64,000 nucleotides of DNA from a phage. Under the pieces are notes generated by a model. That model was not told the origin of the DNA, made no database searches, and saw nothing but the letters and a program-made list of their open reading frames with translations. Of this stretch, positions 1 to 36,691 are shown piece by piece. Both the position numbers and the translations under genes were made by a program. Each line of letters starts with the position of its first letter. Within the stretch, counting starts at the first letter, position 1. The DNA lies in the NCBI GenBank assembly GCA_027262695.1, contig GCA_027262695.1_4722.1, one strand, 5' to 3'.

Positions 1-452
1 TTTTTCCATCCTGTGTTTCTCTTGTTAGGCGTATGTATTAACGACGCCACCGTCTTTTCTGGATCATCCCATAATGCGCGACGAAAACTGGACACCACCA
101 TAACGGTAGGATAGATCTGTACGACCTCCCAACCGTAACGATGCGCATTCGTCGTGCGCCCAACATTGAACAAACACAATTGATTTAAGAAACAGAGCTG
201 CATCTTCGTAAACAACAGCGTGTCTTCACGTTTCACGTAACCGAGGATGTAGGCGTTCTCGAACGCTTCACGTGCTAAGACAGGACGGTTAAGATAACGT
301 AGCGACAACACCAACAACGCAGTGATACGCAACGGATCTTCGGGTCCTTTTAAATCATTCAGCTCGTTCTGCAACCAATCCGGAATCGCCACCGTTAGGC
401 GATAGGTGTCTGTTCCACGGTCAACCACATTTAATGTTGAAAAAGGCAACAT
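1..452 (-). CDS. hypothetical protein, 3' end truncated by window edge (begins MLPFSTLNVVDRG)
   Basis: Manual minus-strand translation stays open from the ATG at 452..450 to position 1; AAGGAA RBS about 10 nt upstream; not in the ORF track because no stop lies inside the window. Confidence 0.45.
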   Translation of the reverse strand, partial: MLPFSTLNVVDRGTDTYRLTVAIPDWLQNELNDLKGPEDPLRITALLVLSLRYLNRPVLAREAFENAYILGYVKREDTLLFTKMQLCFLNQLCLFNVGRTTNAHRYGWEVVQIYPTVMVVSSFRRALWDDPEKTVASLIHTPNKRNTGWK

Positions 453-1044
453 ACCCGTGAATTCCTTCTAACTCGAGGTCGTTCTCGTCGGTTTTCGGTA
501 AAAGTCCGTTAGCTGCCAGCATCCTTGTCATCGCGCCATCGAAGCACGGGAAGATAAGGTTAATAGTTTCATTAATCGCATCAACGTAGCTATACACCGC
601 TTCGAAGTAATCGCCGTCATGATCGATACTCACCAGATCTTGACATAGGTCTTCGGCAATCGTTTCATATACCGGCGGATACCACGAATGAAACGGTCGC
701 TGCATACGTAACGACCAATACTCATACGTCGTATACTGAAGCACGTCATAGGCTGATACGTTAATGCAGTCAAAGAAAGCATACGTGTCCATGTGTTGGT
801 ACAACATCGCCAACACGGTTTCCAAACACACAGCTATCCGCACGCCATCATCTTTCCCGTTAAGGAAATTCGGTTTCTGCCGGTAACGCACGAATGCCGA
901 TAGCCTTGATTGTACTATTCCACCACCAACCATAATGTCATACTCGTATCTAACGTGAAATTGAAATGCCACCAATCTTCCACGCGTGGAATCCAGGTGC
1001 GGAGGATCTGATGAACCTCGCTTCGCATCACGGACAACCGACAA
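421..1044 (-). CDS. hypothetical protein (start uncertain, possibly internal Met near 933)
   Basis: ORF track; N-terminal ~37 aa look like out-of-frame read-through of the upstream gene, the remainder has balanced composition. Confidence 0.4.
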   Translation of the reverse strand: MSVVRDAKRGSSDPPHLDSTRGRLVAFQFHVRYEYDIMVGGGIVQSRLSAFVRYRQKPNFLNGKDDGVRIAVCLETVLAMLYQHMDTYAFFDCINVSAYDVLQYTTYEYWSLRMQRPFHSWYPPVYETIAEDLCQDLVSIDHDGDYFEAVYSYVDAINETINLIFPCFDGAMTRMLAANGLLPKTDENDLELEGIHGYVAFFNIKCG

Positions 1045-1472
1045 CGGAAATCAAACTTCTCATCACGGCCGTAGTCTTCATGCAGGAAAACTTCATCCAA
1101 AACAAACTCAAGTTGTGTATCGACATCACGACCCGAGATATTTCGTTTGTACAGATAAAGTTCAATCGTGTCATAAAGCAACGTATGGATATCGTAATTG
1201 CCATTCGGTGAGAAATAAGGTAAGCGCTCATCGAACATCAAAAACAGATATTCACTGTAGTTTAAGAACGGGATGATGTACCGACGTCCTGTCTGTGGTG
1301 CGCGAATATGTATCGAAACCTGACCTGGACGCGGAATCGCCGACGGTTTAGCATCGTCTCTCTGAAATTGCTCTAAAGATCGCAACAAAGGTGGCCGCAT
1401 TGTAACTCTCCAACGCCCAATTGTAAGGCCCTTCCAACATATGTTCCCATACGTGAATAAACTCACTACCAA
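915..1472 (-). CDS. hypothetical protein (start uncertain)
   Basis: ORF track; overlaps both neighbours out of frame; only the C-terminal ~120 aa look protein-like. Confidence 0.35.
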   Translation of the reverse strand: MVVSLFTYGNICWKGLTIGRWRVTMRPPLLRSLEQFQRDDAKPSAIPRPGQVSIHIRAPQTGRRYIIPFLNYSEYLFLMFDERLPYFSPNGNYDIHTLLYDTIELYLYKRNISGRDVDTQLEFVLDEVFLHEDYGRDEKFDFRCRLSVMRSEVHQILRTWIPRVEDWWHFNFTLDTSMTLWLVVE

Positions 1473-1977
1473 AAACCGGTTCTAACGTCATCGTAAGATG
1501 CGTAAGTTCAGAAGCTGCAGCGTGATACGCGTCCACGTGTCTTTCCATCGAAGGTTCGTCTTCGTTGAAAATCCGCTCGGTATCACCAGCGCATTCAATA
1601 AGTTCGGTAATGAGATCGATCCAGGTTTCGTGGCATGTCAGCGTTTCCTGTTCTCGACTTTGTATGCCGATGTCGGCGTGTACGCTGGACTCGAACCGGT
1701 CGAAAAGGACCCGAAGAACGTGCACCTTGTCGATGTATTTCACCGTTATCCAGGAAAGCGGTTGCCATCGACTCAGCATCCATCCGGTGCTCGGGAACCC
1801 CAAACTCATATAGTACGGGTTGCACGGGGCCAAGGACGGAACGGCGTTGTTTGTAGCGTTCCTTAACGGCGAGGCCTTGTTTAACATAAATGGGTTCATT
1901 GGCGAGTTCTGCGGCTTTTCGTTTTGCGTGGGCCAATCGAAGTTCTTCCAATTGTCCAAGCCATTCAAATTGTTCAT
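1348..1977 (-). CDS. hypothetical protein (start uncertain; may be a frameshifted continuation of 1595..2572)
   Basis: ORF track; N-terminal ~60 aa are low-complexity N/P-rich (alternate frame of the upstream gene), the rest is protein-like. Confidence 0.35.
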   Translation of the reverse strand: MNNLNGLDNWKNFDWPTQNEKPQNSPMNPFMLNKASPLRNATNNAVPSLAPCNPYYMSLGFPSTGWMLSRWQPLSWITVKYIDKVHVLRVLFDRFESSVHADIGIQSREQETLTCHETWIDLITELIECAGDTERIFNEDEPSMERHVDAYHAAASELTHLTMTLEPVFGSEFIHVWEHMLEGPYNWALESYNAATFVAIFRAISERRC

Positions 1978-2572
1978 CTGTTAGCTCCTGGGGACGTTCA
2001 ACAACCACGCCCGATGGGCAGACATTGATCGTAATGTTAATTGATGGCATCGCCATCACGCGAGGATGACTGTTGCGCATCCGAACAACGTGTTGACCTG
2101 CATTCTTACGATCGACATGAAATTCTGTTTCCTTAAAGTCAAAGGCTTGTACAGGAACAGGTTTCCTTTTACGTTTCGGAACGCGGCCAAGATCGACGAT
2201 GAAAATGTAATCACAAACACGCTCGACCCCATAAACACGATTTTCAGACCAACTCTTACCGAATACATTCGGATGGTAATACGACAAATACTCGGTTACC
2301 ATTCCCTGGACAAGATCGAAGTCTTCTCGAAATTCAGGTTGGTACCAAATCGGACCGAGGATTTCTGCAAACGCTTCATGTCGATAGCGGCAATCATGCC
2401 GTGTCCAGGGCATTCTCTGATTAAGATCGAAATCCACCAACAATTCGGTTAATTGCAGTTTTGCCTTCGGAGAAAGCTGGCGTTGATGATGCAAACTCAG
2501 GCAATCGATAAGCGGTAACGAAACCCACGACGCTAACGTATACAAATCGATCCTGGCTAATCTCTTGGTCAT
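1595..2572 (-). CDS. hypothetical protein
   Basis: ORF track, 325 aa; first ~250 aa protein-like, C-terminal ~80 aa Arg-rich and possibly out-of-frame read-through. Confidence 0.45.
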   Translation of the reverse strand: MTKRLARIDLYTLASWVSLPLIDCLSLHHQRQLSPKAKLQLTELLVDFDLNQRMPWTRHDCRYRHEAFAEILGPIWYQPEFREDFDLVQGMVTEYLSYYHPNVFGKSWSENRVYGVERVCDYIFIVDLGRVPKRKRKPVPVQAFDFKETEFHVDRKNAGQHVVRMRNSHPRVMAMPSINITINVCPSGVVVERPQELTDEQFEWLGQLEELRLAHAKRKAAELANEPIYVKQGLAVKERYKQRRSVLGPVQPVLYEFGVPEHRMDAESMATAFLDNGEIHRQGARSSGPFRPVRVQRTRRHRHTKSRTGNADMPRNLDRSHYRTY

Positions 2573-2663
2573 ACTCTTTTCCTAAGTCCCCATTGTTTAT
2601 ACACACGATATCTGGGAATAGTTAAAATATACGGCGTAAAACGAAACAGGAGAGTTTCTCGCG

Positions 2664-2984
2664 CTATTTTCTTCCTCTTTTGATACAACCGATACCCCTT
2701 TCATTTAAAGCCCCCCAGGCGCGGTTTATTTCATCTTCTGTTGCTCGCGTATCTCGCGGAACCACCATCACGCAGTCTTCTATCGGCCAATGCGTCGGTC
2801 GAGGATCAGCAAATAAATCGTCCCACTCAAACGTCCATTTCCTCTTCGAACGGTTATAGTAAAGCGTGAGGTACGTACGCGTATACGCTGGGTAGCCTTG
2901 TAACACGGCGAAGTCTTTTCGATCCTGATGTGCTTGATTCCATTCGTTAAAACGGTTTCTTATTCTTGTCCACCATTTTCCCAT
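2664..2984 (-). CDS. hypothetical small protein
   Basis: ORF track, 106 aa; GGAGAG RBS upstream of the ATG; sits directly downstream of a terminator hairpin and TATGCCG box. Confidence 0.6.
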   Translation of the reverse strand: MGKWWTRIRNRFNEWNQAHQDRKDFAVLQGYPAYTRTYLTLYYNRSKRKWTFEWDDLFADPRPTHWPIEDCVMVVPRDTRATEDEINRAWGALNERGIGCIKRGRK

Positions 2985-3006
2985 AAACTCTCCTACACGG
3001 CATAAA

Positions 3007-3028
3007 AGCCTGCCCCGAAGGACAGGCT
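3007..3028 (-). terminator. rho-independent terminator hairpin with UUCG loop and T-run (minus strand)
   Basis: Minus strand reads AGCCTGTCC-TTCG-GGGCAGGCT followed by TTTTATGCCG; the same 31 nt recur at 61927 in the opposite orientation. Confidence 0.6.
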
Positions 3029-3041
3029 CATCATGATACTT

Positions 3042-3239
3042 TTAACCTTCCATCTTCAATGAGGGATGGTTGACGATATGTGCATGTTTGGTTGGGTCGT
3101 ACGACTGATAAGGGAAATAGCCATGCCATTGACGGCCTTGACATTTCGTACACAGGAACTGACCATCACGGCGTTGATGCTCGTAGGCCAGTTCAGTGCT
3201 ATCAACGTGACCGCAACGTTCGCAGATAAACAGCGACAT
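3042..3239 (-). CDS. small Cys-rich protein (CxxC...CxxC, zinc-ribbon-like)
   Basis: ORF track, 65 aa (MSLFICERCGH...CTKCQG); GGAG RBS; followed by the terminator at 3007. Confidence 0.55.
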   Translation of the reverse strand: MSLFICERCGHVDSTELAYEHQRRDGQFLCTKCQGRQWHGYFPYQSYDPTKHAHIVNHPSLKMEG

Positions 3240-3255
3240 AGCGCATCTCCATGGA

Positions 3256-4236
3256 TTAGAAAAGCAAGAAACCGCTGTTCTTCGCTTCCGCTACGGTTTC
3301 ATCACCCACCTTCGGTGCTTGTTGACGTGCGTTACGATGTTCAACAAAACGTTTTGCTTCGTCCGCGATTTGTTTGATAATACCCCCTAAACGATCGGTG
3401 CTTAATACGAACGATGTCGCTTCACGAATCGGGCTGCTTTCCGGCACAAAACCATCACAGCTATAAATAGCATTAACACCCATGACTTTCGTCGCGTCTT
3501 TCGGATACAACGTACAGAAAGCAATCGGGCTATCATGCTCTTTGGTCCACTCGTATCCCATGAACGTGTTCAATTCGGTGATGGTCGGTTCCAAACCGGT
3601 AACACGAGGATGGTTTAAGAAGTTCTCCAGATCAGCGCTATCCAAGCGACGGTTCTCACCAGAGAACAACACACAGAGTTGGCTGATAACGATCTGGACA
3701 TCCAGGTTAACGTCTTGCTCTGATTTTCCGTTTTCGCCATTCATGTGGTAGCTGACAATCACAGGACGTTTCAACCCTTCTGCGGCTGCCATCAGTCCTT
3801 TGAACGTACGGTCAGCATTGATGGTCTGACGTTCATCGTCAAAGGAGGCAACGATACAGCAAACAACACGCTCACCGCGTTCCAGCAGGTTAGCGACCAG
3901 CGCAGGGCCTGCAACGGAACCCGAACCACCGCTTAAGCTGAAGACGACGATGTTGAATTTACCTGGCGTATGCTTATTAAGAATACCTGGGATTTGTGAG
4001 CAGATCAGTTCAGCATTCTCATCGCGTTTCTTACCGGAACCATCAAGCTCGCGGCCTGCTGCATCTTTAAAGATGTAAATGTGATCATCGTCCAGTGCGC
4101 TATCACGTAGGTTAGCACGGCTGGTATCAACATACGTCATGCTGTGTAATCCTTTCGCGACTTCGCCTTCAAATGCTGAGCCGATTTCGCCACCACAACC
4201 ACCAACCGCCCAAATATGTACTTGGTTCTCTTGCAT
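3256..4236 (-). CDS. phuZ: tubulin/FtsZ-like GTPase, PhuZ-like phage tubulin
   Basis: 326 aa; N-terminal VGGCGGEIG resembles the tubulin GQCGNQIG loop and SGGSGSVAGP resembles the tubulin GGGTGSG signature; AGGAG RBS 6 nt upstream; size matches known PhuZ proteins. Confidence 0.65.
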   Translation of the reverse strand: MQENQVHIWAVGGCGGEIGSAFEGEVAKGLHSMTYVDTSRANLRDSALDDDHIYIFKDAAGRELDGSGKKRDENAELICSQIPGILNKHTPGKFNIVVFSLSGGSGSVAGPALVANLLERGERVVCCIVASFDDERQTINADRTFKGLMAAAEGLKRPVIVSYHMNGENGKSEQDVNLDVQIVISQLCVLFSGENRRLDSADLENFLNHPRVTGLEPTITELNTFMGYEWTKEHDSPIAFCTLYPKDATKVMGVNAIYSCDGFVPESSPIREATSFVLSTDRLGGIIKQIADEAKRFVEHRNARQQAPKVGDETVAEAKNSGFLLF

Positions 4237-4300
4237 GTGAACTCCTAACTTGATATGTATTTAACGCACAATGAATCTTTCTTTACTAAAGGGGTGACCC

Positions 4301-5143
4301 ATGGGTGCTATTGACTACAGTGTCGATCGTATCTGCCGTACAATACCGGCAGATATTCTACAGTATTGCTATATCGATCGTTACGATTGGCGTAACCGCT
4401 ATCCGCGTTCCGTTGAAGATATCATTACCGATTGGGTAATCCGTAAACGGGTTATCGGGGACATCGACATCTACGGGGGACTACAAACCGTTATCCCTCT
4501 TGATGATGCAGGCGTTACGATTGAAGAAGTCACCATTAACTGTTATGTTTTCCATATTCCGCTGGAAGCGACACAGGGACGTTACATCACGTCAGCCTTG
4601 TCGATTATCTCCGGAAGCGTGAATAACTACGGAATCAACTATAACGGTCAATGGGGGGCGTTCAACCAAACCCAGTTCCAACGTCAACTTTGCGGATGGA
4701 ACCCCGCAAGCAACGCATTGCAACAAGGAATGAATGCATTCGGTCCTGTGAACATCCTCAGTACCGCTAACGTTGACATCATCGCACCTAACACCATCAT
4801 GGTGAACAACGTCACACCGGTTCAATTCCCGTTGAGCTTACGCTGTTTCCTTGCCCATGATCCAGAACTAACCAACCTCAGCATGGAAGTCTGGAACGAC
4901 TTTTACAAGCTCTGTTTATACGCCACACAAAGTGACATCTATAACAGAACCGTTATTCGTCTCGATCGTGGTGTTACCGCACAAGGTCAAGAAGTCGGTG
5001 CATTCAAGGAATACATCGATCGCTTCGCTGATGCGGAAAACACCTACCAGGAATTCCTGAACGAGACGTGGGCAGGCGTTGCTGCATGGAACGACCCACA
5101 AACGAAACGTCGGGCAATACGTCTGCAAACCGGTTACTTCTAA
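4301..5143 (+). CDS. hypothetical protein
   Basis: ORF track, 280 aa; AGGGG RBS; transcribed divergently from the phuZ candidate. Confidence 0.6.
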   Translation: MGAIDYSVDRICRTIPADILQYCYIDRYDWRNRYPRSVEDIITDWVIRKRVIGDIDIYGGLQTVIPLDDAGVTIEEVTINCYVFHIPLEATQGRYITSALSIISGSVNNYGINYNGQWGAFNQTQFQRQLCGWNPASNALQQGMNAFGPVNILSTANVDIIAPNTIMVNNVTPVQFPLSLRCFLAHDPELTNLSMEVWNDFYKLCLYATQSDIYNRTVIRLDRGVTAQGQEVGAFKEYIDRFADAENTYQEFLNETWAGVAAWNDPQTKRRAIRLQTGYF

Positions 5144-29550: not shown

Positions 29551-30651
29551 TTATTTGGCTTCGTTAAAATAAATATCAACGGCACGTTCCGTTGCGTAGA
29601 GAAGACCCAGATTCACGGTCCCTACCACTTCCGGTGAACCGATGATACGGTTAGCGATACTGGTGCCACTGAAGATAGCATCAAGGGTGTGCCCGTCTTC
29701 GGTTTTGTTCACACCATGACCCACGGAAGAGACAACGGATTTTGCCTGTGCTGCGAAGGTACCTTTATCCCCCATTCCCGCACCCAGGTCGTAACGCATG
29801 AAAATACGGATGGCGATCTGGTTCTCGCCTAACGGATTACCGTCTATTCTCACGTTACTGTTGTTGATGCGTCCCGTTGTTGCTTCGTTGAGTTTCAGTT
29901 CCTTAACGCGTTTAGCTCGCGCTTTATCCGCTTCACCCACAAGTGCTGCCATGGTTTCACTCATGTCTTCAATCTGGGCACGATACAACACATCGATCTG
30001 TACGACTTCACCATGCACGTCAGCCCGTGGGTTATACTGACTCATACGGCGTAACGCTTCAACCGCTTCCTGACTTTCATCGCTCAGATCGGTCGCAATC
30101 GGTTCTTCCAGTGTTGCCAGGATCGTCCGAGGTTCAACATGATCGCCGATTTTCACCAAACCACGAATGTTGAGATGAGCGTCAACAATGAGCGTACGAC
30201 TCTTAATCGATGGTGTTACGAGACGATCAGCGAGATTGTCGAAGATATACGAACTGTCCTCGTGCGTTTCTGGAATATCCAAAATACCAACCAAAGACAG
30301 AACGCCTGCGCGCCAAACCACCTGACCTGGGTTCCACCAATCCCGTTTGAAATAAAGACGATGGAATACCACTACATCCTGATCCTTAACGCGATCACCA
30401 ACTTTATAATCGGTAATGAGATCGTGAGGATAATACTTACCTGGTCCTTTCCCGATTATCGTACCGAGTTGGAAAACCTCTTCCCCTAATTCTGGATCGT
30501 CGTATTGTATCGTAAGCGCTGTTTTGGTGACCTTCTTCACAACACCATCGCCTTGAGCAGCTGCTGCGAAGAGTTTACCAACACGATGCGCGATAACAGT
30601 CTCACCACCTGTACGCCATGGTTGTACGTCGTAACCTTCAGCAGCTATCAT
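29551..30651 (-). CDS. RNA polymerase beta-subunit segment, 3' exon (GDK catalytic-region motif)
   Basis: 366 aa ORF; ...YDLGAGMGDKGTFAAQAKSVVS aligns to the E. coli rpoB GDKMAGRHGNKGVIS region, and IGDHVEPRTILATL / PRADVHGEVVQIDVLY align to upstream rpoB segments; the frame stays open upstream to a stop at 30796..30798, so the exon probably starts between 30652 and 30795. Confidence 0.6.
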   Translation of the reverse strand: MIAAEGYDVQPWRTGGETVIAHRVGKLFAAAAQGDGVVKKVTKTALTIQYDDPELGEEVFQLGTIIGKGPGKYYPHDLITDYKVGDRVKDQDVVVFHRLYFKRDWWNPGQVVWRAGVLSLVGILDIPETHEDSSYIFDNLADRLVTPSIKSRTLIVDAHLNIRGLVKIGDHVEPRTILATLEEPIATDLSDESQEAVEALRRMSQYNPRADVHGEVVQIDVLYRAQIEDMSETMAALVGEADKARAKRVKELKLNEATTGRINNSNVRIDGNPLGENQIAIRIFMRYDLGAGMGDKGTFAAQAKSVVSSVGHGVNKTEDGHTLDAIFSGTSIANRIIGSPEVVGTVNLGLLYATERAVDIYFNEAK

Positions 30652-31148
30652 GCGGTTGTGCTGTATACCTATAAATACGAGACGCTTTGGCGAAATCCAG
30701 CAAAATACAATTACTGTGCGTCTAGATTGTTCAGATAAGGTCGTTAATCTTATCCCGGTGGTGATGATAGGTGCATCACCAACCCGCTTGCGCTCTCACG
30801 CAAGAGCAGACTATATCACATCTCGTTTCAAACGGTGCTTCTTCAGCGCCTCAACGAGAGTTCACTTCTTCCCAGCGCATCCAGCGCCATTCTCTTATCC
30901 AAGGAGAATGCCTCACTCGAGGGGTACAGGGGGATGAATCCCTTAGTCGTTGAACCGTCACCCTAGAACGTTTCACAACGATCCTTAGGCGATTGGCTGC
31001 GGATTGTCCTTAAGCTATTATCTGTTTTATAACCATACCGTCTTTCTTTTCAGAATCCGTTTTGGTCGATAACAGCGATGGATGTCTTCGCAATTCAGTG
31101 AATCTCATCTACATGTCGCCATATAGACGGACCCTGCTATTAAAAGCG
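30652..31148 (-). ncRNA. group I self-splicing intron (boundaries approximate) in the RNAP beta gene
   Basis: Minus strand carries an R-like element GGTTCAACGACTAAGGGATT (30956..30937) and an S-like element TGATATAGTCT (30818..30808) that can form P7 (GACTA/TAGTC), followed by a P9-like hairpin (30806..30786); no ORF >60 aa in the correct orientation. Confidence 0.55.
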
Positions 31149-34100
31149 TTAATCATCTCTGTCGGCAGCAGGTACTGCAAGTGCCGATGTACTCATTATT
31201 GACGAGCTACCATCCGTTTTCTCGTCGTAAGGTTTTGTTTCACCGTATACAGACACGATGTTTGCGTTAGGTGCAAGATAAGCAGAGATACCTACATCGC
31301 CACTGTCCTTCGTACCTTCAGATACCACACCGATGTCTGACTTGTCGTATTCACGATCGCGTGCGCGTCGAAGCGATGTTTTCGAACGACCCCCGATACC
31401 GGTCATCGTTGCTTCTTCACCCTGCTTGATATCCAACATCGGGTTGGTTTCATCGATGACAATAGAAGCACTGTCGTCAAGGATTTGGTTCCAAACGCTC
31501 ACCGGACTGATTGAGATCTTCTGTCGGTTGCCTTGGCTGCTGTTCTCGTTTTGACGAATAGCACCAACCAGATCCTTATACACCAACTCAGCGAACTTAT
31601 CGTACGTTTTGAAGCGCTGGTAGTTCACATCGTTCGTGTTCGGTGCCCAATCATCCAGAAGCAGTTCAACAGCACGTAATAACAACATGGCGAAATCAGT
31701 CGGTTCACCCATGTTCTGCAATAATGTACGACTTACCGGGTCGACGAAAAGACGCTCCATGAGTTCAAGTTCGCGAAGATGACGAACCTTAAGACCTGCA
31801 CCATCGACAACGTTAAAATAGATATCCCGATTGTCAAAAGCGCCGCGAGCGTAACCGATGTAATTACGGTATTCGTTAAATCCACCCAACAACAATGTCG
31901 TCATTCGATCATCTTTACTGAAGATCAAACTTTCATCGTCGAAGCTTACCGCGAATTCATCCGATGCTAAGCCCATACGAGAACCACGAACTACCGTACG
32001 GTAGTTCGCTTTAAGATGTTCTAATAACGGAGTAAGTCCGCCTAGGTAACTTAGCACAACGCCAACCGGGATACGTACGCCCATGAACTCAAGGTCAGCG
32101 GCTTCGATAGGCATCTTCGCGGCATTGATACCGAAGAAATCAGGGAACGTTCCAACCGGCGTTGGGGTTTGATTCGGTTCGTAAACGTACAACTGATTCT
32201 GATTATCCACCGCCAGGAATTCACCGTTGGTGTTTTTGGCGAACGTTAAGAATCCACCCGCCAGCTGTTCGGTGAACAAATCTGCGCCGATATGTTCTGG
32301 CAACGTTTTGATATCGAGGCGTATGTCCCAATCCGCAAATTGAATTTGGGTGTAGTTACGCGCAAGCACAGCGAAGTAATACGGAACTTTGACAGCCGGA
32401 TCAAAGACGTTACCACGTTTTAAGGTGGTTAGCGGGGAGGTTTTATCGTAATACATCGCTGTGAGTTGACGTGTTAACCAACGACCAGCATTATTCACGA
32501 CACGCTCTGAACGTTTAACAAACACCTTACCGTAGGCGGTACTCAACGCAACTTCGGATGATGATACCTTTCTGATAGGTTTATCAACACGTTGTTTACG
32601 CATCCGGTATTTAATACCGTTAACGACATAAATACCGTCCTTACGAACCTTCGGTAACATCACCGGGAACGTCGTTGGAACACCACCCACCGGAGCCAGC
32701 TTGATCGTGATGACCTGGTAATCACCCATCACGTCAACAACATCTTCAACTTTATATCCGGTAACAGGATAGCCTGCTTGTTGCACTGCCACAACGGCCG
32801 CTGCGATGTCCTTTTGCATCACGTGTTCAACGTAATGTTTATCCCACACCGCAAGCGTCGATTTACATAGGCTCTTATCGACGATAACATCCGCTTCCGG
32901 CATAACCTTTGCTGGCGCTAATTTCGCGGCTTTTGGTTTAACCTCAACGTATTCAGCAAGCGTTAGTCCAGAACCGTCAGGTGCTTCAATTTCATGAATC
33001 GCGTCAGCGTTACGCATCGCGGCTTTATATTGAACGCCGCTTAATTGACCCGCATCCGCGAGGTCGCTCGCACGTACCAACACCGCATCGGATAACGACT
33101 GAATATATTCACCGTGCGTTTTCGGCAACGTTGCCGCATCGAAGACATCATCTTTTTCTTCCGGCACGTCGTCGTTGACGACCTCAAAGAGATCATCGGT
33201 GATGTCTTGATCTTCGTCCGGTTGAAAATCGGGCTGAACTTCAACGCCCGGGACTTCACGAACATCTTCGAACGCACGCTCAACAACCGCGTTCCATGCT
33301 TCAGCGTCGTCATCCTCATCCGATCCTCCGATCAACTCGCTTTCCAGTTCATCGGGGTCAAGAACGGTATCGAGATCCTCACCGTTAGGAAGCACGACAT
33401 CACGTTCATCGTACTCCGCATCGGGACTGTCTGCGAGAATATCACGCTCCTGACGAAGAACCTGCTCCTCTTCTTGTTTCTGTTCTTCTTCGTTGGCGCT
33501 CTGCGACCACAGACGGGTTACCGCCATCATCCAACGACGCTGGAATGTTTCAAGCGTTGTCTTATCAAGTTCCTCGCCTTCCTTCGCCAAACCCGAACGC
33601 CATTCTTCCATTAAACCAAGATTCAGGGTAAAGAAATAGACGCCGTCCGTAAATACAACGTTAAGCTTATCCAGCGAAGCACGATCCAATGACGCCATCG
33701 TACTGTTCTCACGATCGACACCTAACCAGCGGAAGAAGTCAAAGAACGACAGCTCCTCTGAGGTGGCAAAATTCATGAGGTTATTACGGGTTGGGGCTTG
33801 TTGTGTCGTACGCATCAACGATATCTTCGGTAACGTCGACGGGATACGGAATAACAAGAACTGCTGACGGTCGCTTTGCTTGGCGATCTCGTTTGCTTGC
33901 GTCCAAATCGTTTTACGCACGTTGAACCACTCATCATACCAACGTGTTAGCGTCGGACGATAGATGTACATGTGGTTAAGATGCGCATAGTTAGCCACGA
34001 TCTGGGCGTTGATGTTCTTCTCAACCTTGCTAAGATCGGTGACCAAACGAAAACGACGATGCGATGCACGGTAATCCAGTTTCGCACGCGGTAGCTGAAA

Positions 34101-34358
34101 TCGCTGATCGCGTCGAGGCGCGCCTTGCTTGGTTGCGAGGTCATCCGCGAACGATATCCAAAGCTGTGCACTTTCTTTGCTCAGCATGTATTCGTTTTCA
34201 GGAGGACCTATTAACGAAGGATCGGTTGCTGTGTAATGATAAACAGCATAACGCGGCAGCTGCAAAAGCTGCACCAAACGCAATCTAGGTGATAATAACT
34301 CTTGATAACGTCGTACACCGAATTGTCTGTAGTAATCAAGGTATTTAAGTTTTGCCAT
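31149..34358 (-). CDS. RNA polymerase beta-like subunit, N-terminal and middle part (5' exon), with a long N-terminal extension
   Basis: 1069 aa; C-terminal region NPMLDIKQGEEATMTGIGGRSK...VSVYGETKPY aligns to the rpoB fork segment [26 protein letters not shown]...LSVYAQTNEY; own ATG with a GGAG RBS; acidic low-complexity insert. Confidence 0.65.
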   Translation of the reverse strand: MAKLKYLDYYRQFGVRRYQELLSPRLRLVQLLQLPRYAVYHYTATDPSLIGPPENEYMLSKESAQLWISFADDLATKQGAPRRDQRFQLPRAKLDYRASHRRFRLVTDLSKVEKNINAQIVANYAHLNHMYIYRPTLTRWYDEWFNVRKTIWTQANEIAKQSDRQQFLLFRIPSTLPKISLMRTTQQAPTRNNLMNFATSEELSFFDFFRWLGVDRENSTMASLDRASLDKLNVVFTDGVYFFTLNLGLMEEWRSGLAKEGEELDKTTLETFQRRWMMAVTRLWSQSANEEEQKQEEEQVLRQERDILADSPDAEYDERDVVLPNGEDLDTVLDPDELESELIGGSDEDDDAEAWNAVVERAFEDVREVPGVEVQPDFQPDEDQDITDDLFEVVNDDVPEEKDDVFDAATLPKTHGEYIQSLSDAVLVRASDLADAGQLSGVQYKAAMRNADAIHEIEAPDGSGLTLAEYVEVKPKAAKLAPAKVMPEADVIVDKSLCKSTLAVWDKHYVEHVMQKDIAAAVVAVQQAGYPVTGYKVEDVVDVMGDYQVITIKLAPVGGVPTTFPVMLPKVRKDGIYVVNGIKYRMRKQRVDKPIRKVSSSEVALSTAYGKVFVKRSERVVNNAGRWLTRQLTAMYYDKTSPLTTLKRGNVFDPAVKVPYYFAVLARNYTQIQFADWDIRLDIKTLPEHIGADLFTEQLAGGFLTFAKNTNGEFLAVDNQNQLYVYEPNQTPTPVGTFPDFFGINAAKMPIEAADLEFMGVRIPVGVVLSYLGGLTPLLEHLKANYRTVVRGSRMGLASDEFAVSFDDESLIFSKDDRMTTLLLGGFNEYRNYIGYARGAFDNRDIYFNVVDGAGLKVRHLRELELMERLFVDPVSRTLLQNMGEPTDFAMLLLRAVELLLDDWAPNTNDVNYQRFKTYDKFAELVYKDLVGAIRQNENSSQGNRQKISISPVSVWNQILDDSASIVIDETNPMLDIKQGEEATMTGIGGRSKTSLRRARDREYDKSDIGVVSEGTKDSGDVGISAYLAPNANIVSVYGETKPYDEKTDGSSSIMSTSALAVPAADRDD

Positions 34359-34361
34359 GGG

Positions 34362-34548
34362 TTAGGCTCCACGAGGTCCCGTTAAGTTGCGTAATAGGAA
34401 CGCAACCGTATCGTAACCAATATCAATGTTGAATTTATTTTTACCGCTTACCCAGAAAGCACGCTTCTTGTGCGAGTTGGTAATTTCGTCGATGGCTTCC
34501 ATGGAATAAAGAACGTTAACCGAGACCGTATCACCGTCGAACCTTGTC
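34362..34548 (-). CDS. RNA polymerase beta-prime N-terminal subunit, 3' exon carrying the FDGD catalytic motif
   Basis: Minus-strand frame open from 34562: RTEAKTRFDGDTVSVNVLYSMEAIDEITNSHKKRAFWVSGKNKFNIDIGYDTVAFLLRNLTGPRGA-stop; resembles rpoC [20 protein letters not shown]...SQDVVLGLYY; stop TAA lies 3 nt before the beta-gene ATG. Confidence 0.5.
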
Positions 34549-35198
34549 TTCGCCTCAGTTCGCTACGCTGAGACCGCCTGCATGGATACGTACATGACAG
34601 GCTGCTTGCACTTTCATGCAAGAGGAGACTATATCAAACCGGCAGCTTCACCTTCTCGATCGTATCGAGAATGCGGTGCTGAAGTATTCTTCAGCAGCAC
34701 CTGCTACGGTAACCTACACTTCGAAGACGCTTGTCCTCTACAGGGTGGTAAATCCCTTAGTCGTTGAACCTGCGTTGTTTCCCATTCTTGGTTGCAAGAA
34801 TGCCGTATTACTACGCAACAACCAGGCTGCTGATTGCCCATTGTCTCGCACCTTAGCACCGCTTACGCGGCTTTTCTTTCAGCCTAAGCCTCTTACGGAG
34901 GTAGTGCATCTCAACTGTTGTTTCTGCCTTTCGGCACCCCATGGGTCGTTGAGCTTTAGGGGTTCCCAGCAATTCGTAGGTTTTTCAAGCACTCCCTTTC
35001 GGGAATACCGGACAACTTCCCTTGAAAAAAGTCTTTATTTTTCAAGGACTTATCCCCGCCGAGTCCCTGGAGGTACGGGCTCGGAATGCAAACCGTTTCT
35101 ACGAACGATGCTTTTTGTTTCCAATCAGGGTATTCCCATGCGATATATCGTTCGTCAGTAATCGGTTCCCAATTACTATCAAGTTCTGTCTTGGGAGA
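34549..35198 (-). ncRNA. group I self-splicing intron (boundaries approximate) in the RNAP beta-prime gene
   Basis: Minus strand carries R-like GGTTCAACGACTAAGGGATT (34770..34751), S-like TGATATAGTCT (34636..34626) and a P9-like hairpin (34622..34605) that shows a compensatory pair change relative to the other intron. Confidence 0.55.
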
Positions 35199-36518
35199 AG
35201 CGTTAACGGTTGTACGCGCATAACAGGTTAACGGAATGACTGACTGCATGCCCGATACCGGATAACGTGTTACCATCGCAGCCAGGTTGTTCCAGTATTT
35301 ATATCCTGCGATATAGATAAGCTCAGTATAAGTAATGGGGTGAACATCCGCACCAGGTTTGTTAAGCATCTCTGGCGGTATTTCACTCATACCGCGGAAA
35401 AGTCGGAATGAATCGTTGTTTACATAAACCAAACAGAGATAACGACCATTCACCATGATAGGTTCGTTACGTACGCCTGGATCGCTTAGCGTGTTCAATA
35501 AACGTTCGATACCATCCCAAGTAGTAAAGTCATCGATGGTGTCAGGATCAAGTACGACTCGTTCACGTTCCATCGTTTCGGTATCGATAAGCTCAACCTC
35601 GGTAACATCACGGACGAAGATCTCTTGCAAAATACCAGTACGTAATGCGTGTTGCGTTATCGGAAGGGCTGCTTTGCTCATCTGGTATAGACCAAGCTGT
35701 ACAGATGTACATGACGTTTGGTTTGGAGAACCGAGAACCTCCGTTGTGGGGTTAATTGCCGAAATAACGTTACGGGTTGAGTTCCAAACACGACGTGAAC
35801 CGAACTTACCTTGGAAGATCCCTTTCTTACCCTGGAACATATCCAACAGCAATGCGTAGATATCATTGAAGGTTCTTTGCAGGCTCCAGCGCTGTCCGTC
35901 GTAGACAGGATCGTTGTAGTCCTTTAATCCATCGGGAACGGTATTGGAGATAGCAAGGAAACGACGGTAGAGCTCCGTGATTTCTTGTTCGCTTTCATAC
36001 CCGCCTTCCTTTACTTCTATTTCACGAAGACCAGCAGGTAACACCAATAAATGACGGGTCATCGCTTTGAACATGTTTTCTTCGACAACTTTAATACGCA
36101 GTTCTCGTTGCGCTGAACCTGTTGAAACGAACTTGATCTCCGCAACGTGTTGTGCGAAGAAACCGTAGCCGGTTTGTCCCGTTAATGCGTCAGCAGCAAC
36201 GAAATCACGCTGTTCTGGATCCCATCGTGCATAAGCTTTACCGGACATGATATCGCCATAAAGGTGTTTCAATCGAATAAGGCGATCGTAAATGACCGGA
36301 TGCAAGATTTCCACTTTACACTCGATGACCGCAAAGCGGCGATCACGATCTTCACTACCCGCACTCCCAAAGATGGTGTATGAATAAAAACCATCATCAT
36401 GGAAATTACCCGTACTCGGGTCACGGATACTCATGCTGGTAATCTTAGGAAGGAAACGCAACTGCTGCTTATCAAGATGCAGTATACTGATATTGAACGG
36501 CTCTCTGACTTTAGCCAT
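35199..36518 (-). CDS. RNA polymerase beta-prime N-terminal subunit, 5' exon (ORF reads through into the intron to 34956)
   Basis: ORF 34956..36551; start trimmed to Met 12 (AAGGAG RBS); LPAGLREI...GGYESEQEITELYRRF resembles rpoC [44 protein letters not shown] resembles GKRVDYSGRSVI; homology ends near ...ARTTVNA (about 35199). Confidence 0.6.
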
Positions 36519-36691
36519 GGATGCACTCCTTAAATAAGGCGGCGGTATCATCTGAACACATGAGAGACGTAATGGGTGAAGCCATCACCCATCGCTTCCC
36601 TGCTTGATGCGAGGAAGGTATTAAATTACGTACCTGTCCGATGGCCTCGAACAGGCGATGTATGAAGCTATGCTTCAATTTGGAGGTATAC

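Follow-up and report, generated by a model that had tools for sequence, protein, structure and literature searches.

Well-described overprinting pairs of viruses and phages are A/B/K and D/E of phiX174, the lysis gene of MS2, which lies over the coat and replicase genes, and Rz/Rz1 of lambda. Another kind of overlap is met in translationally coupled phage operons, where the start of one gene and the stop of the preceding one overlap over a short stretch (of the ATGA type, or up to tens of bases), usually by 1–4 nt, and where overlapping gene ends are normal. The prfB gene of E. coli is decoded by programmed +1 frameshifting. Here we analysed a window of 64,000 nt of phage DNA, meaning the whole stretch that was available, and focused on a chain of four consecutive open reading frames close to its first position, all on the minus strand. 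The initial annotation had suspected that frameshifts, due to sequencing errors, decay or programmed shifts, break up a single gene of about 700 aa, and had offered several small genes with late internal starts as the alternative. We propose that the four frames, called A to D in the following, are almost certainly separate conserved genes and not one broken gene. In the overall explanation that we consider probable, the ends of these genes overlap and the overlap between A and B arose by overprinting.

The DNA of the window is 86% identical to Escherichia phage Goslar, with an identical gene layout, and its source is a relative of this nucleus-forming jumbo phage. Orthologues of A–D are gp237–gp240 in the RefSeq numbering of Goslar (HOV27_gp237-240; GenBank Goslar_00198-00195), which are annotated as hypothetical and follow each other in the same order and frames as in the window, with a protein identity of 84–87% for A. 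The chain is tightly packed and co-directional and lies between the tubulin PhuZ and DNA polymerase. Pfam and PHROGs scans of A–D yielded no family, and the literature on A–D under both Goslar numbering schemes returned nothing, expression and proteomic data included. The 'gp196' of two Goslar papers is not ORF C; this label denotes a vRNAP subunit in RefSeq numbering. The features of the chain are the following:

1595..2572, minus strand: gene A, 325 aa, orthologue of Goslar RefSeq gp237 / GenBank Goslar_00198
1595..1783, minus strand: tail of A, residues 264–325 with 12 Arg, in frame A over the 5' part of gene B
1645..1825, minus strand: constrained zone in the A/B overlap, with third-position variation about four-fold lower in both frames
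1348..1779, minus strand: gene B, 143 aa if started at ATG 1779, as drawn here; orthologue of Goslar gp238 / Goslar_00197
1408..1411, minus strand: Shine-Dalgarno sequence GGAG of gene C, located within gene B, 7 nt before ATG 1400
915..1400, minus strand: gene C, 161 aa from ATG 1400, overlapping B by 53 nt; orthologue of Goslar gp239 / Goslar_00196
421..933, minus strand: gene D, 170 aa from ATG 933, overlapping C by 19 nt; orthologue of Goslar gp240 / Goslar_00195
1..452, minus strand: 5' part of gene E from ATG 452, running off the window; orthologue of Goslar gp241 / Goslar_00194

Conservation of the four frames

The four maximal ORFs lie at 1595..2572, 1348..1977, 915..1472 and 421..1044, exactly where the initial annotation had placed them, and two of its three overlaps (125 and 130 nt) were reproduced, while the first measured 383 nt instead of 380 nt. 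These ORFs were listed at their longest possible extent, from the first ATG, GTG or TTG after a stop, and this backward extension, up to the preceding stop, accounts for most of the apparent overlap. The arginine-rich or low-complexity tails ascribed to the ORFs could be confirmed for A, with 12 Arg among its last 62 residues, and are not notably present in B and C.

For comparison, we assembled a close set of ten Goslar-like genomes, which are at most 15% divergent, were independently assembled and fall into two clades and a sub-clade. Among these ten, no indels were observed in 1..3037. Synonymous changes track frame A down to ~1826, frame B to ~1400, frame C to ~934 and frame D to ~453, and the codon-usage profile, which had been suggested as a check, resolves into the same four clean frame blocks. 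The synonymous fraction amounts to 0.61–0.81 in the proper frame versus 0.06–0.14 in the other frames, so that in every segment purifying selection acts on the frame proper to it. In numbers, 95 synonymous versus 60 non-synonymous changes were found in frame A at 2569-1826 and 29 versus 7 in frame B at 1594-1401, with a synonymous excess also in frame D at 914-453 and a frame-2 synonymous pattern below 450, which belongs to gene E.

In the search for relatives, word-indexed protein searches with A and B returned close relatives only, Goslar was the sole match of tblastn against isolated phages, and only one more Goslar-like genome came from profile scans of contigs from viruses and metagenomes. 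Two distant homologues were found only by exhaustive HMMER search. In the distant syntenic relatives L011 and L012, whose A proteins are ~28–30% identical to that of the window, A, B, C and D are encoded as separate genes with chain overlaps of 20–41 nt, and blastp matches are one-to-one, each ORF of the window pairing with a different protein whose match stays within that ORF, an outcome that the initial annotation had named as refuting a single broken gene. A single uninterrupted ORF covering the pieces was found neither in the ten close genomes nor in the two distant relatives.

The starts of C and D could be placed because of the substitution pattern, the stops in the ORF heads and the strength of Shine-Dalgarno pairing. 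For C, pairing at ATG 1400 reaches -6.4 kcal/mol. Changes at third positions of frame C start at 1347, those within 1472-1401 are synonymous when read in B but not when read in C, and throughout the head upstream of ATG 1400 frame C shows non-synonymous changes only, with a TTG start that is not conserved. The stretch 1440-1353 contains one variable site among ten genomes, and L011 and L012 encode the orthologues of C as genes of their own. For D, ATG 933 is common to 10/10 genomes and was chosen by gene callers in L005 and L007, and the D frame upstream of it is closed by stops at 1020 or 1013 in 7/9 genomes compared. Further along the chain, D and E overlap by 32 nt, and ATG 452 of gene E pairs with -5.7 kcal/mol.

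These observations bear directly on the reading of the chain as one gene of ~700 aa that is interrupted by frameshifts, caused by sequencing errors or pseudogene decay. Four successive same-strand ORFs in different frames with long overlaps of their maximal forms, encoding proteins that match no known family, speak in favour of such a gene. It would have to be reconciled, however, with an identical, indel-free frame layout in ten independent assemblies at up to 15% divergence, with strong purifying selection in every frame, with orthologues in L011 and L012 that form four genes, each having a start and a stop of its own, with different gaps and overlaps, and with heads of C and D that carry stops or evolve non-synonymously. 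We therefore regard an interrupted gene as scarcely credible, and the earlier suggestion of a single gene broken by errors, decay or programmed shifts is refuted by both the missing indels and the selection acting on each frame.

With the conserved starts, the overlaps shrink to 53 nt for B/C and 19 nt for C/D, and only that of A/B stays long, at 149–215 nt depending on the start chosen for B. In the B/C, C/D and D/E pairs the downstream start is conserved and at most a few tens of bases away from the stop of the preceding gene, which is not the case for A/B. As in translationally coupled operons, the starts in these three pairs, together with the ribosome-binding site of C, fall within the last part of the preceding gene, although the overlaps exceed the usual 1–4 nt. 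Coupling by termination and reinitiation would not span the A/B overlap, which is at least 149 nt long. The alternative of several small genes with late internal starts was thus correct for C and D; A and B are likewise two genes, but share a long stretch that is apparently dual-coding.

Probable dual coding in the A/B overlap

Gene A comprises 325 aa in close relatives and 334 and 280 aa in the distant homologues P0008 and P0009. Its conserved core spans residues 1 to ~263 (nt 2572 to ~1784), and the remainder constitutes the tail over gene B. In the AF2 model of A, residues 1–135 form a confident N-terminal domain and residues 227–325 are of low confidence, and a fold search of this model against viral structures gave weak matches only, to uncharacterised jumbo-phage proteins. 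No structure is predicted for the tail, which is basic and probably disordered. Its codon usage is non-native, with a negative LLR from ~1745. In comparison with L011 the tail is poorly conserved (3/15 residues between LD..E and RPVR), and its Arg-rich likeness may be a by-product of the conserved DRF..SV of B. The length of the tail after the conserved Arg varies by lineage (17, 43 and 62 aa); in addition, A ends 3 codons early in L015 and is truncated at codon 262 in the metagenomic variant L006, by a frame-A stop at 1789-1787.

Within the zone 1825-1645, third positions of A vary at 3/27 sites versus 111/248 in the non-overlapping part of A (p=7e-4), and those of B at 4/33 versus 32/65 in the non-overlapping part of B (p=3e-4). 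Each of the eight lineage pairs tested showed depleted divergence in the zone, for example with 6 changes observed versus 29.6 expected, the variable sites inside the zone being few (11–20). Across 1825-1598, changes are synonymous at 9/20 sites in A, at 11/20 in B and at 0/20 in the third frame, so that about half of the changes are synonymous in either of these frames, compared with 6–14% in non-coding frames (p=5e-7 and 2e-5). Frame A remains open for 64 codons, which in codon resampling has a probability of P=0.0022 given the B protein and the codon usage of the phage, and of P=0.011 in L011, where A and B also overlap. Both frames are open across 1809-1598 in 8/10 Goslar-like genomes, the exceptions being L006 and L015.

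Folding of 1850-1590 revealed no RNA structure relative to shuffled sequences (z=+0.5), no Rfam family matched in the A/B zone, and sigma-70 promoter and terminator motifs occurred at chance level, none of them in the zone. An antisense ORF was rejected as the source of the constraint, as it contains stops in several genomes.

It is conceivable that A and B are separate genes and that the tail of A is a tolerated read-through without function, in which case the low variation would stem from the nucleotide needs of the B start or from local recombination. Non-native codon usage and missing predicted structure are in line with such a tail, as are its lineage-dependent length, its weak long-range protein conservation and its shortening in L006 and L015. 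Low-divergence patches also occur elsewhere in the genome, in ~4% of 62-codon windows in a phage-pair comparison. However, the depletion recurs at every phylogenetic depth and not just in one lineage pair, for which reason a single recombination patch was rejected as its cause, and it reaches ~100 nt into B, beyond the usual span of initiation signals. Moreover, the codon choice of B avoids stops in frame A (P=0.002 in the window, 0.011 in L011), and the synonymous excess is found in both frames. A functionless tail is consequently unlikely in our view, and on balance we lean towards an A/B stretch that is truly dual-coding, with a tail maintained by selection.

In the dual-coding model, A would be translated as far as its stop at 1595, when coding of B is already under way, one base out of phase, and ~150–215 nt would thus be read in two frames. 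The most likely origin of this arrangement is overprinting, in which the stop of A would have shifted downstream across the 5' end of B and provided A with a basic tail. From ~47 nt in the relative that is most distant, the overlap increases to ~128 nt in the next one and to ~185 nt in the Goslar-like phages, and this growth fits a 3' end of A that was extended over B. We infer that the tail itself is selected for and that translation of B starts independently, at a ribosome-binding site that is weak.

As in the overprinted pairs of phiX174, MS2 and lambda, two (here predicted) proteins share one stretch on the same strand in different frames, and silent-site variation is suppressed. Furthermore, frame B has the look of an ancestral, well-adapted frame, whereas the tail of A is skewed in composition, poor in codon usage and probably disordered, again as in those pairs. 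Unlike them, A/B constitutes a 3' extension of the first gene across the 5' end of the second and not an embedded new gene, and it resides in a 240-kb jumbo phage with little pressure for genome compression.

Initiation of gene B

Candidate starts for B are ATG 1809, present in 10/10 genomes, ATG 1779, GTG 1743 and, further upstream, ATG 1977 with its strong Shine-Dalgarno sequence. Conserved coding in frame B begins at ~1788-1743, and from ~1788 onwards residues are kept with different codons in comparison with both L012 and L011. ATG 1779 is replaced by ACG in two genomes, which counts against our account of B initiation. At the conserved starts nearby, Shine-Dalgarno pairing reaches at best -3.1 kcal/mol versus a median of -6.4 kcal/mol for annotated genes. 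The single-sequence structure model of B is of low confidence. Gene callers call no B gene in the clade of the window. In Goslar, gp238 is annotated with 98 aa from ATG 1644, a codon that reads ACG in the window genome (variation at 1643/1641). Because the sister clade lacks this start codon and the conserved coding sequence reaches at least 100 nt further upstream, the gp238 annotation is probably too short.

The most conspicuous ribosome-binding site belongs to ATG 1977, an ideal AGGAG with a 7-nt spacer and a pairing energy of -6.6 kcal/mol. Starting here, as drawn in the initial annotation, B would comprise 209 aa and overlap A by 383 nt, and its first ~50 residues would form a leader without constraint. 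In L011 (-9.5) and L012 (-9.3) as well, the maximal B ORF has a strong site at its first ATG, with all later candidates weak, and ATG 1977 was selected by a gene caller on a contig in which A is cut off (P0007). Nevertheless, there is no purifying selection on frame B across 1977-1826, where 4/29 variable sites are synonymous at normal variation density, and the openness of the B frame upstream fits chance (P=0.07, 0.53, 0.26). In the window genome and in L011, the site and its ATG are spelled by the invariant ..E-L-T-D-E.. motif of A, which renders conservation of the site uninformative, and in L012 the strong site is located at a different position. Initiation at ATG 1977 is therefore rather improbable.

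A different way to account for the weak starts is programmed +1 frameshifting from A into B near 1790-1700, which would yield an A–B fusion of ~400 aa and leave B without an initiation site of its own. In all three lineages the conserved nearby starts of B have no good ribosome-binding site, frame-A conservation ends (P-x-R, ~1784) almost where that of frame B begins (T-G, 1788), and the junction is highly conserved. The window genome also offers possible slip sites, namely CCC-G at 1797-1794 and TTT-C at ~1706-1703, the latter preceding a rare CGA codon. Yet no slippery motif at the junction is common to the window, L011 and L012, TTT-CGA reads TTT-AGA in the Goslar clade, and the region, as described above, folds no better than shuffled sequence and has no Rfam match. 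Frame A stays open far past the plausible shift sites and beyond chance, which is not what a model with a shift alone predicts, and silent sites are depleted on both sides, where a simple switch would leave them free. Compared with prfB, frame B is likewise +1 relative to A, has no strong initiation site and follows a conserved junction. In contrast to prfB, no slippery codon, stimulatory stop or rare codon is common across the lineages, no stimulatory Shine-Dalgarno sequence or structure is found, and the zero frame of A does not end soon after the junction but remains open for at least 60 codons. Recoding of this type is very unlikely here. Translational bypassing (hopping) was dropped, as the sequence contains no matched take-off and landing codons.

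Implications for Goslar-like phages

Goslar_00193, a member of the same gene chain, has been reported to associate with the phage nucleus (PMC9891218), which makes A–D reasonable candidates for replication-compartment biology. In a far-reaching version of our model, A/B would form an ancient dual-coding module that Goslar-like nucleus-forming phages maintain actively, in which the basic tail of A arose de novo from the alternative frame of B and gained a function, for example in nucleic-acid binding or targeting, and in which B has no ribosome-binding site of its own and is made by a non-standard route, either from ATG 1977 inside A or by recoding from A. We consider this version a long shot; if it were true, translation of A would directly set the level of B.

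Overlaps of this sort are an ordinary kind of feature, and the one described here is a modest curiosity. The chief value of the analysis is the correction of the annotation, in that the stretch should be annotated as separate genes and not flagged as broken. Beyond that, the A/B series, with overlaps of ~47, 128 and 185 nt, provides a small but useful example of new peptide sequence arising by overprinting.

Four conserved genes in a Goslar-like neighbourhood

The first 4500 nt of the window (1-4500) align over their full length, at 86% identity, with Escherichia phage vB_EcoM_Goslar, a member of the nucleus-forming jumbo phages (Chimalliviridae). Next to the chain, ORF 3256..4236 encodes the tubulin PhuZ, and the co-directional gene order reads PhuZ, gp235, terminator, gp236, A, B, C, D, E (gp241), gp242, gp243 with its SH3DP domain, terminator, DNA polymerase, where A to D correspond to Goslar gp237, gp238, gp239 and gp240 in RefSeq and to Goslar_00198 to Goslar_00195 in GenBank. 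With each ORF opened at the first ATG, GTG or TTG past a stop, the maximal ORFs lie where the initial annotation had placed them:

1595..2572, minus strand, ORF A
1348..1977, minus strand, ORF B
915..1472, minus strand, ORF C
421..1044, minus strand, ORF D

ORF calling yields overlaps of 383, 125 and 130 nt, so that only the first, reported as 380 nt, had to be corrected; owing to the start rule, all three are upper bounds. Of the tails described earlier, only that of A is Arg-rich (12 of the last 62 residues); those of B and C are not.

We aligned the window with nine further Goslar-like sequences: L002-L004 from IMG/VR (L003 being Goslar itself), L005 and L007-L009 from Logan assemblies, L006 from ENA and the 249-kb metagenome contig L015. 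Sequences of the window clade share 97-98% identity with the window and those of the Goslar clade about 86%; L015 is 94% identical to Goslar. The chain had been suspected to be one gene broken by frameshifts, through sequencing errors or pseudogenisation. However, no indel was found in 421-2572 among the ten sequences, and substitutions track each frame. Neither sequencing error nor a decaying pseudogene would yield one and the same frame layout across ten separately assembled sequences.

Table. Synonymous fraction of variable sites by segment
2569-1826: proper frame A, 0.61; other frames 0.14 and 0.08
1594-1401: proper frame B, 0.81; other frames 0.06-0.08
1347-934: proper frame C, 0.75; other frames 0.11
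914-453: proper frame D, 0.65; other frames 0.11-0.12

The frame-aware codon-usage check proposed earlier, run as a log-likelihood profile, resolved four blocks in agreement with these frames, switching near 1745-1700, 1430-1390 and 936. While word-indexed protein searches returned only close relatives and no distant homologue, an exhaustive HMMER search revealed two genuine distant homologues of A: P0008, with 334 aa and about 30% identity, and P0009, with 280 aa and about 28%. L011 and L012, the contigs that encode them, show synteny with the window (DUF7484, PhuZ, small gene, A, B, C, D ... SH3DP, DNA polymerase), and blastp of A, B, C and D against their called genes gave one-to-one matches to four different genes, the result that had been named beforehand as speaking against the single-gene idea. 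A to D are thus four separate conserved genes.

For Goslar A to D, no publication was found under either numbering scheme. An association with the phage nucleus of Goslar has been reported for Goslar_00193 (RefSeq gp242), two genes downstream of D (PMC9891218). PhuZ and chimallin (ChmA) are gp201 and gp189 in GenBank numbering (PMC9891218) and gp234 and gp246 in RefSeq numbering (bioRxiv 10.64898/2026.04.21.720040), so that names such as 'gp196' denote different genes across papers.

Several further differences were observed around the chain and in the wider comparison with Goslar. The gene just upstream of A (2664-2984, minus strand, 106 aa), the gp236 orthologue, matches phrog_5903 (E=5e-21, function unknown) and, with 74% nucleotide identity to Goslar, has diverged more than any other gene of the neighbourhood; L011 and L012 have no called gene between A and the small gene that resembles gp235. 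The window carries two group I introns, 30787-31153 and 34605-35037 (both minus strand; Rfam RF00028, 51 and 58 bits), and the equivalent 10 kb of Goslar only one (34237-34665 in the comparison sequence L010). The additional intron interrupts the gene for the RNA polymerase beta subunit, leaving ORFs 31149..34358 and 29551..30651 (both minus strand, 1069 + 366 codons), whereas Goslar gp207 is a single ORF of 1449 codons; the gene is genuinely split in the window. Goslar gp206 (L010 34658-36130), adjoining the annotated group I intron, has no blastn match in the window, and a 531-aa ORF occupies its place at about 34956-36551 (minus strand), indicating a replaced or highly diverged segment. Over the 49-kb comparison divergence is mosaic: the gp217 (95% identity) and gp200 (97%) orthologues lie far above the 80-90% identity to Goslar usual for other genes, and the alignment of the tail-fibre gene gp204 covers only about 60% of its length.

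Gene starts at the B/C, C/D and D/E junctions

Two of the three long overlaps are the product of over-extended ORF heads. At every variable site between 1472 and 1401 the change is silent in B and alters the residue in C, the maximal C start TTG 1472 reads TCG in the Goslar clade, and from 1347 onward variation sits at third positions of frame C; between 1440 and 1353 only one site varies in the ten genomes. Since ATG 1400 is the sole canonical start between the 1401 and 1347 limits, C can be assigned to 915..1400. This ATG is preceded by GGAG 7 nt upstream, and its Shine-Dalgarno (SD) pairing, -6.4 kcal/mol, matches the median for 40 annotated Goslar genes. Upstream of 933, the D frame is stopped at 1020 or 1013 in seven of the nine genomes then compared, and its variation is synonymous in C; ATG 933 is common to all genomes and chosen by gene callers.

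915..1400, minus strand, C, overlapping B by 53 nt
421..933, minus strand, D, overlapping C by 19 nt
from ATG 452, minus strand, E, overlapping D by 32 nt

The chain in L011 and L012 shows similar end overlaps of 20-41 nt, and moderately long end overlaps are the normal style of this operon.

The A/B overlap shows dual-frame constraint

In 1825-1744 only 3 of 27 third positions of frame A vary, against 111 of 248 in the rest of A (p=7e-4), and in 1743-1645 the same holds for frame B (4/33 against 32/65, p=3e-4); no constraint was seen in the last 16 codons of A. Over 1825-1598 there are 20 variable sites, of which 9 are synonymous in A, 11 in B and none in the third frame (p=5e-7 and 2e-5 against non-coding-frame backgrounds of 0.06 and 0.14). 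Some synonymous changes in frame A are first-position exchanges between CGA and AGA, favoured by the Arg-rich composition; we therefore weight the rate depletion above these fractions. Divergence is depleted in all eight lineage pairs tested, for example with 6 differences observed and 29.6 expected between window and Goslar, 2 and 11.1 between L015 and Goslar, and 0-1 and 3-6 within clades, which argues against a single recombination patch. Elsewhere in the window/Goslar pair, patches of low divergence make up about 4% of 62-codon windows and are concentrated in two globally conserved genes.

When the synonymous codons of B were resampled with the phage's own codon usage, frame A met a stop after a median of 16 codons, near the A end in L012, and an open stretch of the observed length had P=0.0022 in the window and P=0.011 in L011. 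As other sources of constraint in the A/B zone, RNA folding found no support (z=+0.5), Rfam gave no match, promoter and terminator motifs stayed at chance level, and no antisense ORF stays free of stops across all genomes.

In the ten Goslar-like genomes frame A runs without a stop to 1595, except in L015, with a TGA three codons early at 1606, and in L006. The latter, a metagenomic Goslar-clade variant (ENA ERZ28615158 scaffold_37289), carries a TAA at window-equivalent 1789-1787; A then stops at 261 aa, immediately short of the conserved ESMA..L motif, and frame B has Asn in place of Thr. The genome could be defective, the shorter A could be tolerated, or the TAA could stem from misassembly. 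A clearly resembles its distant homologues as far as a conserved P-x-R (residue 263, about nt 1784) and weakly through ESMA..L, where P0009 ends (residue 280). After the conserved Arg, the tail comprises 17 aa in L012, 43 aa in L011 and 62 aa in the window. The Arg-rich ends are alike (RPVRVQR and RPVRRQR), which may be a by-product of B conservation, since they coincide with the conserved DRF..SV of B. In an AF2 model of A, built on a four-sequence alignment, residues 1-135 form an N-terminal domain of moderate confidence (pLDDT about 75-88), and confidence is low from residue 227 on; no secondary structure is predicted in residues 277-325, and fold matches are weak, all to uncharacterised jumbo-phage proteins. 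B modelled alone is all-helical at low confidence, its first helix starting near residue 19 (counted from ATG 1809) at SWITVKY.

Start of B and consequences for annotation

Gene callers call no B gene in window-clade contigs, and the annotated start of Goslar gp238, ATG 1644, reads ACG there. Upstream of 1644, frame-B changes at 1681, 1720, 1768 and 1789 are synonymous, and frame B upstream of the called starts in L011 and L012 closely matches that of the window: TGWMLSRWQPLSWITVKYIDKVHVLR in the window aligns with TGILLNQWQPLCWVTVSYVNKLMVLR in L012, with 11 identical residues encoded by different codons, and with TAMVIRSFQAISWMTMKYVKPVNIIR in L011. This residue conservation, together with the synonymous changes, places the beginning of conserved B coding at ~1788-1743.

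Table. Candidate starts of B (minus strand)
ATG 1977: SD -6.6 kcal/mol; 383-nt overlap with A; first ATG of the maximal ORF
ATG 1809: SD +0.6 kcal/mol; 215-nt overlap; in 10 of 10 genomes
ATG 1779: SD -2.6 kcal/mol; 185-nt overlap; ACG in L004 and L005
GTG 1743: SD -3.1 kcal/mol; 149-nt overlap; aligns with an ATG of L011

Annotated genes have a median SD of -6.4 kcal/mol, with 90% at or below -3.7. ATG 1977 has equivalents with even stronger pairing in L011 (-9.5 kcal/mol) and L012 (-9.3 kcal/mol), but its conservation says little, since in the window and L011 both the strong site and the ATG are spelled by the invariant E-L-T-D-E motif of A. No purifying selection on frame B was seen in 1977-1826, where its openness is compatible with chance (P=0.07, 0.53 and 0.26). 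No site varies in 1825-1790, around ATG 1809, and ATG 1779 aligns within 1-2 codons of the ATG of L011 and the TTG of L012. The A/B overlap is real and long, at 149-215 nt.

A +1 ribosomal shift from A into B would account for the weak ribosome-binding sites of B and for A-type conservation meeting B-type conservation near 1788. We nevertheless regard it as very improbable: the window, L011 and L012 lineages share no slippery motif that we could find, TTT-CGA reads TTT-AGA in the Goslar clade, RNA folding gave no stimulatory structure, frame A is open downstream beyond chance, and silent-site variation is reduced both before and after any plausible point of switching.

The overlap most likely arose by extension of the 3' end of A over B. 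The A/B pair belongs to a familiar type, overprinted overlapping genes, here in a new setting. With its ATG absent from the sister clade and conserved frame-B coding reaching at least 100 nt further upstream, gp238 of Goslar NC_048170 (179224-178928, equivalent to window 1348-1644) is probably annotated too short. The annotation should accordingly be corrected to a B protein of probably 131-153 aa in place of Goslar's 98 aa, and to a D start at 933 in all genomes.
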